This document shows, piece after piece, positions 48,390-60,673 of a stretch of DNA of 64,000 nt. A model generated the notes under the pieces. It did not search any database. It worked only from the letters and a program-made list of their open reading frames with translations, and was not told where the DNA came from. A program made the position numbers and the translations under genes. The stretch's first letter is position 1; each line of letters starts with the position of its first letter. The stretch spans positions 1 to 64,000 of IMG/VR virus record IMGVR_UViG_3300040810_000656. The stretch is one strand, 5' to 3'. This DNA comes from a virus.

Positions 48390-50022
48390 TACTAATCACC
48401 TTTTGATATCTAGCTTGTTCCCAGCTATTTAGCTGGTTTCTAAAGTTTAACAATTCTTTACCAGCTTCTTCAATAGAAAAGGCTTTAAACTTATTATAGG
48501 ATTGAATATGTGATTCATTAAAATAACAATTTGCATCAACATTATCACATCTGTATCCATATGTGCAGTCTCTTAATACTCTTCTCCAAAAATATCCGCC
48601 AATCCAATCTGGTTTACATAAAACATTATTAAACAAAAAGTTTACTTTATCTTGTAGAGAAAGATTCTCAGGAACACTTGTTGCTGGCTGCTTTATTCTT
48701 GGTGGACTAAGCCAAGTAGATTTAATATCTTGAAGTTCTACTCTATTTGCATAGTCGATCCATTTATTGGCTGCATTATCCCATGTATAATGGGACTTTG
48801 CTTTATTCATTACTTCTATGCCCTTAGCACGTATTTGTTCTGGCGTTTCGTTTGTTAGTGCAAGCAAATAATTAATGAATTTTTCATTATCTGGAATGGC
48901 TCTCATGCATCCAGTTTCGCATTCTTTGTTATACGCCAGTGGCTCAATACCTACACCTCCTATGTTATCAATAACAGACTGCATGGCAGAATAGTATGTA
49001 GAAATAACAGGAAGCCCACAATAAGCGGCTTCTAGTTGAGGCATACCAAAACCTTCGCTGTTTGCGTATTGCACATAGACATCAAATATATTGTATATTT
49101 TTGCAAGATCTTCTTCCGACATCTTATTATTAATACCAACAAGTTGATTAGTAAACTTGCCGCAGTTCTTACAGTGCTGCACAGAATCTTGGAAAAAGTC
49201 AGAACTAATTTTATTACAGTTCTTGCATTTATATGTAAACAAAACCCTGTTTGACAAACTATGCTCATCTAAAAGACTTGGAATATCCCAGCCAATGTCT
49301 GGATAATATGTGTGGCAATATAAAAACACATTGTTCTTTTTTGTTCTATTTAAGAATTCTCTGAAAGCCTTAAATAAATCTGGATATAGTTTGCGTTTTT
49401 GGTTTCTCATTACAGTGCCAATAATTAATGATTGAGAATGAACACCGTGTTTTTGCTTGTGTTCATATTTATTGTCAATCATATTAAATGTATCACTTGC
49501 TGCTGGGGGTGCTAGATCTACAAATTTCATGTTGTCAGACTGTGAAGCAAGTGTATCGCGGCCAAACTCAGAATATGCAAAAATAGCATCTGCGTCTTCA
49601 TATGTTGCAATCCACTGATTATTTTGGGGAGCGGCGTCTACAGTAGGCATAAGTGCCCATTTGTAAAAATCTCTAAATGGAGAACGCTGTTCAAATTCTA
49701 CCATCCACCAATCTCTTATGTCCATCACTACATCTGGCATAAAGTCTATTAAAACTTCATTATAGGTAAAGTCTCCAAATTGAGCAGTTGGATTACTATA
49801 AGAGCTAAAATTTGGATGATCTTTGGATGGTTTATTTGGATAAATCTTCCAAGGATACTGTTTTATTTGAGGGTCTTCGGCTCCAGCATAAACACCCAAT
49901 TGAGCAACTTCAATATTTGGCTGTTGAGCCATTCTTTGAAGCACTTCATTGGTATAAACTGAATAGCCAGTTGTTAGCCAAGGAGCCTCTGATACAAATA
50001 ATACTTTAGTTTTTCTATTCAT
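48379..50022 (-). CDS. glycosyltransferase family 4 with zinc-ribbon insertion
   Basis: TTGYS, VMRNQKRK, CKNC-x14-CKNC insert, YANSEGFGMPQLEAAYCGLPVI. Confidence 0.88.
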   Translation of the reverse strand: MNRKTKVLFVSEAPWLTTGYSVYTNEVLQRMAQQPNIEVAQLGVYAGAEDPQIKQYPWKIYPNKPSKDHPNFSSYSNPTAQFGDFTYNEVLIDFMPDVVMDIRDWWMVEFEQRSPFRDFYKWALMPTVDAAPQNNQWIATYEDADAIFAYSEFGRDTLASQSDNMKFVDLAPPAASDTFNMIDNKYEHKQKHGVHSQSLIIGTVMRNQKRKLYPDLFKAFREFLNRTKKNNVFLYCHTYYPDIGWDIPSLLDEHSLSNRVLFTYKCKNCNKISSDFFQDSVQHCKNCGKFTNQLVGINNKMSEEDLAKIYNIFDVYVQYANSEGFGMPQLEAAYCGLPVISTYYSAMQSVIDNIGGVGIEPLAYNKECETGCMRAIPDNEKFINYLLALTNETPEQIRAKGIEVMNKAKSHYTWDNAANKWIDYANRVELQDIKSTWLSPPRIKQPATSVPENLSLQDKVNFLFNNVLCKPDWIGGYFWRRVLRDCTYGYRCDNVDANCYFNESHIQSYNKFKAFSIEEAGKELLNFRNQLNSWEQARYQKVISNVK

Positions 50023-50320
50023 CGTTATCAATATCGTTAAAGATTTTAAAACTAGTTACACGAAACACAAAATTATTACTATAGTTTCTAGCAATTGCTT
50101 CTATTACTATATAATCACCAAATCTACCTTGATTGGCAATCGCTTTTGCTGCCGTGTCCCATGCTTCAAAAGTCAAAACATTGTTTCTTTTTTTGGTGTA
50201 GCCTTCGCGGTCTTTGCGATGTTCTTCTACGTTAACTTTAAAACGACAAACTGTTGTATTGTGGACATTTTCTAAAATTGGGTCTTCCACAAACTTCCCA
50301 AGAAAATTACATTTATTCAT
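50015..50320 (-). CDS. ssb: single-stranded DNA-binding protein (short OB fold)
   Basis: MNKCNFLGKFVEDP, VCRFKVNV, FEAWDTAA, GDYIVIEA; short acidic C-terminus. Confidence 0.85.
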   Translation of the reverse strand: MNKCNFLGKFVEDPILENVHNTTVCRFKVNVEEHRKDREGYTKKRNNVLTFEAWDTAAKAIANQGRFGDYIVIEAIARNYSNNFVFRVTSFKIFNDIDNDE

Positions 50321-50323
50321 TTA

Positions 50324-51874
50324 TCAAACCTGTTTTACTCTGTTTACAATTATAGATGTTTTATCGCGTTTAGATATTTCACCATGAATAAGAACGGTGT
50401 TTCCCTCTACTAGCAAGTCTTTATACTCTTCAAAAGCCTCTGGAAAAACGGTAATCGAATCCAGCATCCCGCTGCTGTCTTCGGCACAAACAAATGCCAT
50501 AAGCTGACCAGGATTTTTGCCCTTTTTAGTTTTGTATTGTCTAACAGAACTAATGCTTACAACAATGTTTACTTTACCTGTTATCGCACCGTTTGCTATG
50601 TCTCGACACATAGTAGCATATGACGCCTCTTCAGTATCATCAACCTTGCTGCACGTTAAAGCACATCCCATTAAATTTTCCTCGTCTTGAGCAATTGTAG
50701 CAACACTATCCTTAATTCCATACATTGGATTAGCTAGAGCCTGATTAATATCTGCTACAGTTTGCTGTCTCTTAGAAGTAAGCTTGAAATTCATGAGCAT
50801 GTCATTCACGCAGTCATATAGAGTATTAAACTTTTTGTAGTTTTCATATACATACTTCTGTTCTCTTGCTGTTAATTGTTGCCAGCTATCAAATTCATAT
50901 AGCATTTTTTTACGATCTGTGTGGTTCTTTGGCCCATTAAATGCACCAACGGAAATTAATGATATAGCAGCTCTTTTATTTACCTTGCCATTATAGATCA
51001 TTTCCATTAGGCAGTTTAGCCATGTGAATTGACTTATTTCATGACTAGACTTTAGGTTTTCAATCTTTGCACACTCAGCATCGCCAACATTCTTAACATG
51101 CGAAATGCCAAAAATAATTTTACCTTCATGATCTGTAAAATCTTTATATAGGTAGTTTAGTCTTGGTGGATATACTTCAATATCGTTACCCTTGGCATCA
51201 ACGATTAGCTCCTTCATTTCACGCTGAGAGTCTGGCTTACGATACGCATGATTAAGATAAGTGACATAGAATTTGGATGGACGATAAAGTTTACAATATG
51301 CTGACCAATAAGCATTAATAGCATATGAAACAGCGTGTGATTTGTTAAATGCGTATCTGTTAGACTTCTCAATCCATCCAAAGATTTCCTGGGCGATCTC
51401 CTTAGAAACAATACCAAGCTTTTCAGCACCCTCTAGGAACTGACCCTTAACCTTTTCCATGAGGTCGGCTTTCTTTTTACCAATAGCCTTACGAAGAGCG
51501 TCTGCTTCCTTCAGATCAAACCCAGCAAGTTTCTGGGCGATCATCATAGATTGCTCTTGGTATACAAGCACCCCATAAGTTTCAGATAGAATATCCTCAA
51601 GAGACTCATGCTGGTAAATAACCTTGTCTTTTCCAGCCTTACGGTCACAGTAATGCTGAGTCATAGATTTACCGTCTACATAGGCACGAAGACACCCAGG
51701 ACGGATAAGACTAATTAGAGCGGATAGTTCTGAAATACTTCTAGGATGTAACTGTTTTGACCAATGGCGACCAAGATTAGACTCTAGCTGAAACACTCCC
51801 TTGGTACGTCCTGAACAAATATAGTCCCATACTTTTGTGTCGTGAAAATCATTAATGTCAAACTGACTACTCAA
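50324..51874 (-). CDS. dnaE: DNA polymerase III alpha, C-terminal part (fingers, HhH, OB)
   Basis: GVFQLES, SLIRPG, ETYGVLVYQEQ, ADALRKAIGKKK, YAFNKSHA, MAFVCAEDSSG; probable TTG start at 51874 behind GGAG. Confidence 0.95.
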   Translation of the reverse strand: MSSQFDINDFHDTKVWDYICSGRTKGVFQLESNLGRHWSKQLHPRSISELSALISLIRPGCLRAYVDGKSMTQHYCDRKAGKDKVIYQHESLEDILSETYGVLVYQEQSMMIAQKLAGFDLKEADALRKAIGKKKADLMEKVKGQFLEGAEKLGIVSKEIAQEIFGWIEKSNRYAFNKSHAVSYAINAYWSAYCKLYRPSKFYVTYLNHAYRKPDSQREMKELIVDAKGNDIEVYPPRLNYLYKDFTDHEGKIIFGISHVKNVGDAECAKIENLKSSHEISQFTWLNCLMEMIYNGKVNKRAAISLISVGAFNGPKNHTDRKKMLYEFDSWQQLTAREQKYVYENYKKFNTLYDCVNDMLMNFKLTSKRQQTVADINQALANPMYGIKDSVATIAQDEENLMGCALTCSKVDDTEEASYATMCRDIANGAITGKVNIVVSISSVRQYKTKKGKNPGQLMAFVCAEDSSGMLDSITVFPEAFEEYKDLLVEGNTVLIHGEISKRDKTSIIVNRVKQV

Positions 51875-52556
51875 TATACATTTCTCCGTTTGCAAATGCT
51901 TTTTCAAACTTTACCTTCTTCAATAGCCCACGTTGAAGCTTCAAGAACTTAATAAGGATGTTGGCAGTGTCCTTAACGTCTTGTAGAGCATCATGAGCGT
52001 TATCCTTGGATAGTCCAAAATAATCACGCAAGTAATCCATGTTATAAGACTTAACATCTTGATTGTTCTCAAACCAGCAGTAGATGTGATCCATTAGGTC
52101 CATCTTAAAGACAGGATTAAATAACTTTTGGTCATCACGATCAGTATTGTATGGGCCATACTCTTTACACATGCGACGAACAATAGGCATATCATAACTA
52201 ATAATGTTAAAACCAGCAGCGATTGGAGCAGTGAACGGAGTATTTTTCCAATTGTACTGATTTACAAATTCTGTAAACTTCTTCCATACTACCTTTGGGG
52301 GTGGTGCTTTTGCTAGGTCTTCACGGTTCTTTCTGGTAATTTCCAGTGCCTTTTCCTCAAGCGGAGCAACACCAGCGGCAATAGCTTTTTCATCATCAAT
52401 AATAGGACGAATCTCGCTATTGAATACACCTCCAGGTTGAAGAGTTAGCTTTCTGCCATGAATAGCAATTGCAGCAATCTGCGTAGGTTGTGCTGTGTTA
52501 GGATTAGCACCACCAGTCTCAAAATCGAAGCAAATAATGTCCCTCATATTAGCCAT
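51867..52556 (-). CDS. dnaQ: DEDDh 3'-5' exonuclease (DNA polymerase III epsilon-like)
   Basis: FDFETGG (ExoI), GFNIISYD (ExoII), AHDALQD (ExoIII). Confidence 0.88.
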   Translation of the reverse strand: MANMRDIICFDFETGGANPNTAQPTQIAAIAIHGRKLTLQPGGVFNSEIRPIIDDEKAIAAGVAPLEEKALEITRKNREDLAKAPPPKVVWKKFTEFVNQYNWKNTPFTAPIAAGFNIISYDMPIVRRMCKEYGPYNTDRDDQKLFNPVFKMDLMDHIYCWFENNQDVKSYNMDYLRDYFGLSKDNAHDALQDVKDTANILIKFLKLQRGLLKKVKFEKAFANGEMYIE

Positions 52557-52776
52557 GAATCTTATCCTTTAATAGGGAAGAAAATTTATTAACAGCTTCG
52601 TCAAGATTAGCATAAAGATTGTAGCATCTGTGCTTCTCAGACCATACTTGATACTTAGCACTACGCTTAATTATAGCATTCTTCATTACGTTGTCAATAT
52701 TGCAAATGGATACACCATCAACATCAAGCGATCCGCCCCCATAAATAACAGCTTTAACGTCTTGTTTAGTCATCAT
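52549..52776 (-). CDS. hypothetical 75-aa protein between dnaE-N and dnaQ
   Basis: ATGA overlap with the dnaE-N stop; GGAG RBS; stop overlaps dnaQ start. Confidence 0.7.
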   Translation of the reverse strand: MMTKQDVKAVIYGGGSLDVDGVSICNIDNVMKNAIIKRSAKYQVWSEKHRCYNLYANLDEAVNKFSSLLKDKIHG

Positions 52777-54338
52777 AATTTAATCTCCATGACTTTTGAT
52801 AGTAGATCAATCCCAAGAATGTCTAGTTTAACTAAACCCAAAGTCTCCAAGTCTCCCATCTCAAACGCCGCCACAGGTACTCCGTTTTTATCATTAATCA
52901 TAGGACATACGTCCTTGAGCCTGTGTTTGGAAACAATCACCCCGGCGGCATGTTTTCCATGAGATTTATTCGTTCCCTCAATCCTAATAGCCTGTTTAAA
53001 AATATCAGCGAGCGGACCCACAAGATTGCCATCGTTATCTTTACGACACCAACCTTCTAGATCTTCTGACTGATTTTCCAATGCCCAATTGATAATGCTT
53101 TTATCTTCTGACACTTCTAGCTGGTCAGAGATTTCAGCTTCATTGGGAATGCTCTTTGTTATCTCGTTCATTTCGGTAAATGACACAGCGTCATTAATTC
53201 TCAGCACTTCTTTCAATGCGGCACGACCTTGGAGTCTGCCAAACGTGATCATCTGTGAGACGTTTTCATGACCGTACTTGTCCTTAATGTAGTCAATAAC
53301 TTCATCACGATGCTCCGCTGGAACATCAACATCAATATCAGGCAGAGAGATATTGTCTTTGGTATTTCGTCCTTCATTATAGAATCTCTCAAAAATAAGA
53401 CCATACTCAATTGGATCTACTTCCGTTATACCAATTAAGTAAGAGACTAAACAGCCAGCAGCAGATCCTCGACCAGGACCAGCAAGCCAGCCACGACGTT
53501 TAACTTCGTTTACAATATCAGCAACAATAAGGAAATAACCAGATAAATCTGCCTTGAGAATAACATCTAGTTCACGCTTGACGCGATCAGCATAGATCTT
53601 CTTCACGTTCTCATTATCAACCTTATTGGTTGTCATGATCCTAGACTTCCATCCTTCACGACACAGATGACGAAGATAATCTGGCTGAGACATATTTTTA
53701 GGAGTAGCAAAAGCTGGAAGAACGGGATTTCTAGCAACTTCATATTCTTCGCACATATCCTCAATACGGTCTAACTTATTGTTATCTTTGGGTGCATGAA
53801 GATAAAATCTATCCGTCTCAAAAAACTTTCTGTTGTCAAATTCTTCATCTGTCTTTAAACGCTTCTTGATCTTGGGTATAGTGGTTTTCATTCCAGAACA
53901 TAGAAGCACTCTATGGCATTCTGCGTCTTCTTTAAAAACATAATACACAGGATCAGAAGTGTGGTCATATTTAATAAAACTAGAGCCAAATATCTTTCTA
54001 TATGTTTCATTATTGCTAATACATATAACGTTATTTTTTTTGGATACTAGTTGTAGAGCGTCGATTGTTTGATTAGAAACACATGCAATAACGTCAAACC
54101 ATCCATCATGATTCGTTGCTATAAGCATATAATCACCAAAGTCACAACCAATAATTGGTTTGATTCCATGCTTTTTACATGCCGAGTGGAAGTCCACCGC
54201 ACCAGAAATAGTCTTCATGTCAGCAAGAACGCATGATGTATAGCCAAGCTCTTTGGCTCGCTTGGCTAACTCATTACATTTAGAAAAACCACTCAACAAA
54301 CTAAAATGCGTCTTACAGTTAATCGCAATCTTAGGCAT
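52773..54338 (-). CDS. dnaE: DNA polymerase III alpha, N-terminal part (degenerate PHP, palm, thumb)
   Basis: HFSLLSG, GIKPIIGC, GPGRGSAAGCLVSY, LIFERF, SLPDIDVD, GKHAAGVIV, GLVKLDILG then stop. Confidence 0.95.
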   Translation of the reverse strand: MPKIAINCKTHFSLLSGFSKCNELAKRAKELGYTSCVLADMKTISGAVDFHSACKKHGIKPIIGCDFGDYMLIATNHDGWFDVIACVSNQTIDALQLVSKKNNVICISNNETYRKIFGSSFIKYDHTSDPVYYVFKEDAECHRVLLCSGMKTTIPKIKKRLKTDEEFDNRKFFETDRFYLHAPKDNNKLDRIEDMCEEYEVARNPVLPAFATPKNMSQPDYLRHLCREGWKSRIMTTNKVDNENVKKIYADRVKRELDVILKADLSGYFLIVADIVNEVKRRGWLAGPGRGSAAGCLVSYLIGITEVDPIEYGLIFERFYNEGRNTKDNISLPDIDVDVPAEHRDEVIDYIKDKYGHENVSQMITFGRLQGRAALKEVLRINDAVSFTEMNEITKSIPNEAEISDQLEVSEDKSIINWALENQSEDLEGWCRKDNDGNLVGPLADIFKQAIRIEGTNKSHGKHAAGVIVSKHRLKDVCPMINDKNGVPVAAFEMGDLETLGLVKLDILGIDLLSKVMEIKL

Positions 54339-55236
54339 ACTTCAATAATTCCTCTCTAGTTGTTTTCAATTGTTCCTTAATCTTATCAATACCAATAGAA
54401 TCTCTAGCACAAACAACTTCAGCAAGATATTTACCTATCCATTTTGGATTAAGTACTGTCATGTTGTAGATTGCAACATTATTAGAAATTTCTGAACATT
54501 GTTTAGAATTGATGCTATTTAAAGTAATAGATAATGTTTTGTCTAGAATACTCCAAGGAGTTCTAGCAAACGGTGCATTTAGATAATACCATAAAGGAGG
54601 AAGGTTGTCAACTAAGGGAATAGCTCCCATTTTTATTGTTTCAAAAAACCTAAATGTTTCAGGGCTGTTTGCCCCATGTGGACACAAAACAATTTTAGAA
54701 TCATTAATAAGATGAATATAAGCTTCATGACCTAACCCCTTATTAAAACCATCAGTATACATAACTTTATATTTAAATTTCATGCCAGAATTTAACATTA
54801 AATTATCTAAGTTTCTTTTAAAACAATCTCTTGTTCCAGTTTTTGGAATTTGACCGACAAAAATAAAATCGTAATTTCTTTCTGGCAGAGGTTTGGGGTC
54901 TGGCATATTTGAAAAATCAGCAAAAGTTCCTATAGGCATAGGATAAACTAAGTTGTTCGTAGGATACAATCTTTGAAATTTATCCAACCAAGGATAATTT
55001 TGAAATATCATATGGACATCAGAAACAAACAAATCACATGGATTTATGTGTATTTCTCTTGATGTGGAAATTTGTATATTTAGCTTGTCATCGTAAAATT
55101 TAGGCCAATCTTGCTGATCATATTTTACAACGACACGATAATTATTTGGCAATGCTTGAGCAAGTTCCTTGGCTACCTCTAAGGTATAAACATTGCCCTG
55201 ATCAAATTCTTGATGAATGTCAATTAATTCTGCCAT
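54331..55236 (-). CDS. exostosin/GT47-like glycosyltransferase (paralog of 37682..38494)
   Basis: RNYDFIFVGQ, SKIVLCPHGANSPETFRFFETIKMG. Confidence 0.7.
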   Translation of the reverse strand: MAELIDIHQEFDQGNVYTLEVAKELAQALPNNYRVVVKYDQQDWPKFYDDKLNIQISTSREIHINPCDLFVSDVHMIFQNYPWLDKFQRLYPTNNLVYPMPIGTFADFSNMPDPKPLPERNYDFIFVGQIPKTGTRDCFKRNLDNLMLNSGMKFKYKVMYTDGFNKGLGHEAYIHLINDSKIVLCPHGANSPETFRFFETIKMGAIPLVDNLPPLWYYLNAPFARTPWSILDKTLSITLNSINSKQCSEISNNVAIYNMTVLNPKWIGKYLAEVVCARDSIGIDKIKEQLKTTREELLKYA

Positions 55237-60239: not shown

Positions 60240-60673
60240 CGTCTAATACATCCATCGCAGACAAACCATTCACGTTTATGGCTCGGGTGGGTTTTTACTG
60301 TTCTACTGCATTTTTGGCATTTTTGCTCAATCATTTTGAATGGCTTTCTTTTTCGTTCTGCAAGAGAAACTTCTGGAGTTTCAATGTTCTTATCAGATCC
60401 ATCGTCATAAAATTTGATTTCTCTCTGGATTTTATTTACAGCAATTCCATTTTTTTTAGAGTTATCGTCTTCTGTACGCATTTTAAATAAAGAAAAGTCT
60501 TCATGATCTTTTTTCTTCTGCGGTGGATCTTTTTTTGGCTGTGGAACAACTGCTTTTTCTACAGAGTTACCTGTGTTTTCTTCCAATAGCTCATTTGCTA
60601 GCATTATAAGCTCATCATCTCCTGTGTCAATAGCAAGTTTGATTAGCTTCTTAGCTTGTTTTATTTTATCCAT
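60236..60673 (-). CDS. hypothetical protein with C-terminal zinc ribbon
   Basis: KCQKC...VCDGC. Confidence 0.7.
   Translation of the reverse strand: MDKIKQAKKLIKLAIDTGDDELIMLANELLEENTGNSVEKAVVPQPKKDPPQKKKDHEDFSLFKMRTEDDNSKKNGIAVNKIQREIKFYDDGSDKNIETPEVSLAERKRKPFKMIEQKCQKCSRTVKTHPSHKREWFVCDGCIRR

Follow-up and report, generated by a model that had tools for sequence, protein, structure and literature searches.

DNA polymerase III alpha (Pol III alpha, DnaE) is the textbook single-chain bacterial replicase, and single-chain structures have been solved for the enzymes of Taq (2HPI/3E0D), Escherichia coli (2HNH/5FKU) and Mycobacterium tuberculosis (5LEW/7PU7). To our knowledge, the only well-known natural split of DnaE is the one repaired by an intein. 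In that case, the cyanobacterial genes dnaE-n and dnaE-c lie at distant loci, are broken at FNKSH and carry the parts of a split intein, and their products are spliced to one chain. A different layout is described here in a stretch of 64 000 nucleotides from an uncultured marine phage (positions 1 to 64 000 of IMG/VR record IMGVR_UViG_3300040810_000656, hereafter the window). Its DnaE is encoded not as a single polypeptide but as two cistrons, DnaE-N and DnaE-C, with two genes between them, one for a 75-aa protein (ORF75) and one for a DEDDh 3'-5' exonuclease; the same was found in more than 100 loci. The phage is thus predicted to build its replicative C-family polymerase from separate polypeptides, the N and C chains forming a non-covalent complex without splicing. 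We give this reading, which draws on sequence comparison and on the analogy with other split enzymes, a probability of about 0.8.

Other replication genes in pieces have been published. In the 'fractured genes' of marine metagenomes, DnaE and other replication genes are interrupted by split inteins, and a free-standing homing endonuclease is encoded in the gap (Dassa et al., 2009; PMC2677866). The family B polymerase gp43 of Aeromonas phages 25 and 44RR is split into 43A and 43B, which co-purify and polymerise, and the pieces of the split NrdA of phage Aeh1 reassemble without splicing (Edgell et al., 2010; PMC2988022). Group 2.2 jumbo phages encode a minimal Pol III alpha core as two stand-alone proteins, which were predicted to reconstitute the enzyme (Iyer et al., 2021; PMC7824862). 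A search of open-access papers returned none that describes a full-length DnaE divided between palm and fingers around an exonuclease gene, and the surveys of bacterial and phage polymerases that it did return do not mention the layout.

The four cistrons lie on the minus strand and are joined by stop/start overlaps of 4 or 8 bases. DnaE-N (52773-54338, 521 aa), assigned from the Pfam PHP and DNA_pol3_alpha matches, comprises a reduced, degenerate PHP domain, the palm and the thumb, with the three catalytic Asp in PDID and KLD motifs. Its stop codon overlaps the start of ORF75 (52549-52776), a conserved protein accompanying the exonuclease and recognized from its homologues and from its ratio of nonsynonymous to synonymous substitutions (dN/dS), by 4 bases. 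The ORF75 stop overlaps by 8 bases the start of the exonuclease gene (51867-52556, 229 aa), which was assigned from RNase_T and phrog_192 and is an epsilon-like candidate proofreader. These two genes fill the 0.9-kb gap and have their own ribosome-binding sites. The longest open reading frame (ORF) of DnaE-C is 50324-51907; its first codon, a TTG at 51907, lies within the exonuclease gene by 41 bases. The C chains of 60-odd relatives open with M-[S/N]-x-FDINNF, and this start is located at the exonuclease stop codon or extends over it. The window counterpart of this start is a TTG at 51874, which is preceded by GGAG 9 bases upstream and overlaps the exonuclease stop by 8 bases. Because the start motif of the relatives matches this TTG, DnaE-C was taken as 50324-51874. 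By this comparison and the Pfam matches, the start is most likely at 51874, not at 51907, which gives a chain of 516 aa with the fingers, the helix-hairpin-helix (HhH)/beta-binding region and the oligonucleotide-binding (OB) fold. A sequence-only reading of the same DNA, made earlier without database searches, had described the domain content of the C-part correctly, and the one correction concerns the start. It had also stated that overlaps join all four genes and leave no room for an intron. The junctions are as it described, and an Rfam search of 49500-55000 at E<=1 returned no match, either to group I or to group II introns.

The domains of a DnaE are shared out between the two chains. In DnaE-N, Pfam PHP (PF02811) was matched at 1.9e-17 over residues 8-133 only, and DNA_pol3_alpha (PF07733) at 8.1e-75 over residues 220-509, which covers the full profile (1-260/260). 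In DnaE-C, the finger domain (PF17657) was matched at 5.5e-45 (profile 26-164/166) and HHH_6 (PF14579) at 1.5e-09. The OB fold of DnaE-C (PF01336, 3.1e-05) scored 24.3 bits, under the curated cut-off of 27 bits; it aligns with the OB region of Taq alpha, and the OB strands are present in the AlphaFold2 (AF2) model of an unsplit relative, P0121 (here and below, P-numbers are homologous proteins and L-numbers are loci of relatives). No tau-binding C-terminal domain was found after it. On phrog_405, DnaE-N covers 245-607 and DnaE-C 623-1068. Residue 514 of DnaE-N corresponds to Taq alpha 626, directly past the third catalytic Asp (K-x-D motif), and residue 15 of DnaE-C to Taq alpha 644, from where the alignment spans Taq 644-951 plus the OB region. 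PDID and K-x-D align with Taq D463/D465/D618, which places all three catalytic Asp in the N chain. The GRGSAAG loop is in the N chain and the finger motif LRKAIGKK in the C chain; the catalytic motifs are all intact in both halves. Alignment to Taq DnaE had been proposed as a check by the sequence-only reading. With N running to 626 and C from 644, it agrees with Pfam in upholding the earlier assignment of the catalytic Asp to N and of fingers, HhH and OB to C.

The break was located on unsplit relatives. The proteins P0121-P0123 (1052 aa) are 56-59% identical to DnaE-N across its full length. In a joint alignment, the end of the N chain and the start of the C chain fall in adjacent columns of these proteins. 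The 521 + 516 residues of the window chains account for the 1052-aa unsplit protein, small indels elsewhere excepted, and no residues are lost at the break, in line with the claim that DnaE is encoded as two ORFs with almost nothing missing between them. In the AF2 model of P0121 (predicted local distance difference test score, pLDDT, 91), the strand bearing the third Asp (514-520) is followed by a helix (521-533), a loop (534-542) and the first finger helix. The window break maps onto the end of helix 521-533, before loop 534-542, that is, after the last palm helix and before the fingers.

Since N and C account for the whole unsplit length, there is no room for intein fragments. Rejoining of the halves into one covalent chain, by a cryptic intein, an intron, trans-splicing or ribosomal bypass, is therefore considered very improbable, although inteins are found elsewhere in the family, in N chains (P0145, P0149, P0154) and at the FNKSH site of C chains, and once in the record itself. 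That one was the only match to the intein-splicing profile PF14890 in six frames of the whole 97-kb record. It lies in another gene, outside the window (74810-75715, minus strand, E 6.7e-14, inside a 640-aa ORF). The break has no such match, as had been claimed, and no Rfam intron match. The 0.9-kb gap consists of two conserved, selected genes, ORF75 and the RNase_T-family exonuclease; it holds no homing endonuclease, and it grows to 2-4 kb in relatives. The FNKSH site of the cyanobacterial split intein is found about 175 residues into the C chain, where coverage of NCBIfam PRK09532 (620-777) and PRK07373 (37-359) agrees with its earlier placement inside the C-part.

Inteins are common in this DnaE family, but not at the palm/fingers break. 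N-chain homologues of 950-1030 aa (P0145, P0149, P0154, P0159 and others) have intein and LAGLIDADG domains inside the N chain. A C-chain ORF of L150 (10670-12823) has an intein-like insert ending in ...VVHNC, and inteins are present at the FNKSH site of the C chain in L063, L130, L138, L140 and L144. In L130 (8998-14477), DnaE is in three pieces: N, the exonuclease, C1 (270 aa), a 309-aa LAGLIDADG ORF and C2 (372 aa) follow one another. The second break is at the classic FNKSH intein site and could be a true 'fractured gene' or a disrupted intein.

The layout recurs widely. Among proteins of 286-912 aa, 5644 matched DnaE-N at E<=1e-10, and the best 120 of these, from JGI, ENA, Tara and Logan assemblies, are all 505-552 aa long and 58-92% identical to it. 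The order N, ORF75, exonuclease, C and a gene for a protein like single-stranded DNA-binding protein (SSB) is kept in 80 IMG/VR loci, and also in most of the 65 metagenome loci with enough flanking sequence to show it. With any small ORF in the second place, it was found in more than 100 independent metagenomic contigs from different projects, at 43-100% identity. The dN/dS ratios, calculated by the Nei-Gojobori method against close relatives, were 0.05 for DnaE-N (against L003), 0.03-0.10 for ORF75 and 0.04-0.09 for both the exonuclease and DnaE-C. Split point and gene order thus recur under purifying selection in related phages, a point that had been singled out for checking. In about 20 relatives, the exonuclease gene is separated by extra, unrelated genes from C or from ORF75, and the gap reaches 2-4 kb; they encode endonuclease VII, FkbM-type and other methyltransferases, a formyltransferase and GT2. 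Given these inserts, the four genes are independent cistrons. Inserts of sugar-modification type (FkbM and other methyltransferases, a formyltransferase and GT2) were located at L020:8488-9201, L030:3591-4896, L034:8445-9077, L064:8643-9329 and L065:7759-8406; they echo the large glycan gene set of the window phage.

The record is a metagenomic fragment and unsplit relatives exist, so a decaying dnaE, a misassembly or a chimeric contig had to be weighed. Such a broken gene is given next to no probability: the identical break is present in more than 100 independent assemblies, both halves have dN/dS of 0.03-0.10 with their motifs intact, and the genome fragment has no other polymerase. The recurrence, the purifying selection and the inserted genes together point to a real, selected set of genes for a two-chain polymerase.

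The junction between the exonuclease and C raises a further alternative, in which a programmed frameshift at the end of the exonuclease gene would produce an exonuclease-C fusion, a PolC-like link. Both in the window and in many relatives, the C frame is indeed open for 11-24 codons upstream of its start, which takes it over the 3' end of the exonuclease gene. This open stretch follows, however, from the conserved C-terminal peptide of the exonuclease being read in another frame. One or two unrelated genes stand between exonuclease and C in about 20 relatives, and several others have no overlap. No fusion of RNase_T with the finger domain was present among the 120 best longer homologues, and no slippery site was noticed at the junctions, though no dedicated search was made. 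The frameshift is accordingly regarded as extremely improbable.

A perfect sigma-70 consensus (TTGACA, 16 nt, TG-extended TATAAT; 12/12 match) lies inside ORF75 at 52670-52697 on the minus strand, about 110 nt before the exonuclease start, and is a candidate internal promoter for the exonuclease, C and SSB-like genes. Two perfect sites are present in the window versus 0.16 expected; the other (60603-60630, minus strand) is intergenic, upstream of dnaB. The site in ORF75 is kept in L003, weaker in L129, L090, L005 and L006, and absent in more distant relatives. It could have arisen incidentally from the codons of the conserved C-N-[IL]-D motif. A promoter here would suit an arrangement in which the two chains do more than restore a standard alpha: C, the exonuclease and SSB would form a separately expressed module, and the N:C ratio or an exchange of partners would be regulated. 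The partial conservation of the site in near relatives, the much better conservation of the exonuclease than of either half (94% vs 76-79% identity in L004) and the partly discordant trees of N and C would fit such a module. Against it, the promoter is not conserved beyond close relatives and could be incidental to those codons, the overlapping stop and start codons point to coupled translation, and both chains should be needed together, given that palm and fingers in the solved Taq and E. coli structures jointly form the site for the incoming deoxynucleoside triphosphate. The module is for these reasons thought improbable, and the two-chain polymerase expressed from one operon is retained.

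The exonuclease matches Pfam RNase_T at 1.7e-13 (residues 8-201) and phrog_192, 'DNA polymerase exonuclease subunit', at 1.4e-26. Its translation contains the motifs Exo I (FDFETGG), Exo II (YD) and Exo III (HDALQD, with the His present). It is the best conserved of the four genes, at 60-97% identity in the loci, and in L004 it is 94% identical, versus 76-79% for N and C. Identity in L002 is 97% for the exonuclease and 100% for N, ORF75 and C. A divergence that differs from that of the flanking genes in these two loci suggests local recombination or much stronger constraint. Its putative association with the polymerase is based on gene adjacency in split and unsplit relatives.

The state of the PHP domain bears on proofreading. 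In the clade of the window, including P0121 and L080, about 100 residues of PHP are deleted, and most metal ligands are substituted or deleted, namely H-x-H, the LLDG Asp, the DHG His and, in the last motif, D/H. They are kept in bacterial DnaE and in the basal viral lineages, including the split L147 and L149. The shortened PHP forms the N-terminal 130 aa of DnaE-N (53940-54338), and to judge from its residues it is present but probably inactive. Because the ligands are lost in this clade, the separate exonuclease appears to be the only plausible proofreader, and from its motifs and position it is likely the sole proofreader of the split polymerase.

Across the loci, the homologues of ORF75 comprise 73 distinct sequences of 70-79 aa, in which 7 positions are invariant. 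The protein is without a match in Pfam, PHROG and NCBIfam. Its AF2 model (pLDDT 82.9) has a helix, four strands and a helix (alpha-beta4-alpha). A Foldseek search found nothing in the PDB at E<=0.001, the ESM Atlas yielded nothing usable, and VIA-align gave a YkuJ-like fold at Z 5.9 only, which is within the stated noise range of the tool. The theta/HOT fold (about 76 aa, a three-helix bundle) was not among the fold matches, which does not exclude a relation. In L146, where dnaE is whole, an ORF75 homologue stands directly before the exonuclease gene, upstream of dnaE. Conversely, a split sub-clade (L080, L086, L095, L099 and L104) is without ORF75, and N and the exonuclease are about 10 bases apart there. 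By gene order, then, ORF75 travels with the exonuclease and not with the split, and it is most likely an accessory partner of the exonuclease. By hhalign, ORF75 is unrelated to the small ORFs that take its place in L147 and L149, and also to a 165-aa ORF that precedes the exonuclease gene in L081.

The unsplit viral relatives include P0121-P0144 and the P0152/P0160/P0172 group, and the genomic context was read for two unsplit relatives. In L081, the whole dnaE begins right next to the exonuclease gene; in L146, ORF75 comes first, followed by the exonuclease gene, one ORF, the whole dnaE and SSB. Scans of viral contigs with P0122, with an alignment and with P0131 gave no match. Because the exonuclease cassette stands upstream of the whole dnaE in these two loci, the split layout can be described as one in which the cassette and the 5' half of dnaE have swapped places. 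The distant lineages L147/L148, L149 and L150 have the order N, small ORF, exonuclease and C, and L130 has N, exonuclease and C with no separate small ORF called. In these distant lineages too, the break is in the same linker after the conserved helix, and the free tails differ.

Trees were built from N plus C and rooted with bacterial DnaE, using FastTree (84 rows) and IQ-TREE with the posterior mean site frequency model (PMSF; 51 rows). Split and whole forms interleave on both, and well-supported branches of the IQ-TREE PMSF tree force at least 3 changes between the two states. In an approximately unbiased (AU) test (30 rows, LG+G4), a single split clade was rejected (difference in log-likelihood 388, p 6e-55). 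The whole proteins P0121-P0123 sit beside ORF75-type split forms in the window clade (Shimodaira-Hasegawa-like approximate likelihood ratio test 98 on N data), and the N data reject a group made of these proteins and the remaining whole forms (p 1e-4). With the 13 split rows of the window clade taken as monophyletic, each half alone rejected the grouping (p 0.015 and 0.010), but the combined data did not (p 0.106); P0121-P0123 may be a re-fusion. The N and C half-trees differ in placing these proteins; a recombinant origin is not claimed for them, as the C data do not reject the position in the N tree (p 0.29). Parsimony gives three changes whether the split or the whole form is ancestral. The half-trees are also partly discordant elsewhere: the C chains of the L080 group branch outside, and the C regions of P0121-P0123 lean to the whole forms. 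This could be due to exchange of halves between phages or to faster evolution of free C chains.

A broader proposal on the history of the locus is put forward tentatively and is held to be unlikely as it stands: the cassette (small ORF and exonuclease) and the 5' half of dnaE would have swapped repeatedly and reversibly, always at one linker, so that split and fused states are interconvertible and the split form advantageous. If this is true, the split may let the fingers/OB chain be transcribed or dosed separately, together with the proofreader, or may allow halves to be exchanged between co-infecting phages. Speculatively, a tandem duplication of the cassette and N followed by deletions would give either state via viable intermediates.

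For the enzyme itself, the following working scheme is proposed. The four genes would be expressed from one operon, with translation coupled through the overlapping stop and start codons. The N chain would supply the nucleotidyl-transferase centre, with the palm and its three Asp, the thumb and a PHP remnant without metal ligands. The fingers (LRKAIGKK), the HhH and OB parts that bind DNA and a presumed clamp-binding region would come from the C chain. The two chains would dock non-covalently through the normal palm/fingers interface, as in split gp43 and split NrdA, while the exonuclease encoded in the gap would proofread with ORF75 as its accessory partner. Neither chain alone should polymerise, since palm and fingers both contact the incoming nucleotide in the solved Taq ternary complex.

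Several points weigh against this picture. The exonuclease matches epsilon weakly, and its pairing with either chain is a prediction. ORF75 is missing from one split sub-clade and is without a recognisable fold relative, which makes a subunit role for it a guess. The TTG start of the C chain is set by comparison with relatives. The Pol III alpha type is the only DNA polymerase found in the genome fragment: neither PolA nor PolB nor another Pol III alpha palm was detected in it. The record is about 66% complete according to CheckV, however, and a second polymerase or a clamp may be encoded elsewhere; at this completeness, the failure to find a beta clamp gene in the fragment is uninformative.

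The polymerase genes belong to a replication operon on the minus strand of the window, in the order RecA, DnaB, DnaG-like primase, dNMP kinase, PD-(D/E)XK nuclease, methyltransferase and a GT47-like gene, followed by DnaE-N, ORF75, the exonuclease, DnaE-C and the SSB-like gene. The last (50015-50320, minus strand, 101 aa; Pfam SSB 8.4e-07) encodes an OB-fold protein and is a conserved downstream neighbour, which comes next after the C chain in almost every locus whose sequence reaches that position. No close relative was found among GenBank phages: the best N-chain match has 36% identity, DNA matches are limited to short patches, and the exonuclease has no match at 1e-8. In a cultured Cbastvirus, Tenacibaculum phage Larrie (ON950054, 3228-6808; L154), DnaE is annotated as two directly adjacent ORFs (515 and 676 aa), cut at another place and with no gene in between; a frameshift, an error of sequencing or a further natural split could account for this.

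The layout is of practical and general interest. For the docking of palm and fingers in a C-family polymerase, it gives a system that is natural, easy to clone and present in a very large group of ocean phages. Its alternation with the whole form among close relatives, at one linker, provides matched natural pairs for comparison. It also bears on how an epsilon-like nuclease is recruited when PHP is vestigial, and on the reasons for which phages put up with split genes or favour them. In the annotation of viromes, half-length 'DnaE' calls of this kind should not be taken for fragments or pseudogenes.

Compared with single-chain DnaE, the window enzyme has the same domain order and catalytic motifs, N and C being collinear with Taq alpha and with P0121, and it shares with the unsplit relatives L081 and L146 a DEDDh exonuclease gene beside the polymerase gene. 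It differs in that the coding sequence stops after the last palm helix and resumes beyond the exonuclease gene, in a PHP shortened by about 100 residues and in having no tau-binding domain. With cyanobacterial split DnaE, it shares a replicative Pol III alpha encoded by two genes; unlike it, the window has no intein, its genes are neighbours, the break is between palm and fingers, and FNKSH lies inside the C chain. The marine fractured genes resemble it in their marine, phage-like context and in their two adjacent half-genes with a gene between. The window, in contrast, has no intein, its gap holds a proofreading-type exonuclease and a small ORF, and endonuclease VII is an extra gene in only some relatives. 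In the jumbo phages, the split enzyme lacks PHP, HhH and OB; its break separates the NTP-binding subdomain from the Mg/template-binding one, its two genes lie far apart, and it occurs beside a PolB replicase, whereas the window encodes a full-length DnaE, cut between palm and fingers, in adjacent genes and with no other polymerase found. The T4-like genes in pieces are alike in encoding an essential replication enzyme as two cistrons, without splicing elements and with a contiguous homologue in existence, and by analogy split gp43 and NrdA are the best model for how the window enzyme would work. Those splits concern family B, are linked to homing endonucleases or an untranslated spacer and are known in few phages; that of the window concerns family C, its inserted genes are putative functional partners and its family is very large. 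On the present comparisons, what is new is the occurrence of intein-free genes in pieces, and a widespread one, in a polymerase family where they were previously undescribed. The placement of the exonuclease, with or without the small ORF, upstream of whole dnaE, the interleaved tree of split and whole forms, the constant linker and the link of ORF75 to the exonuclease are likewise new here.

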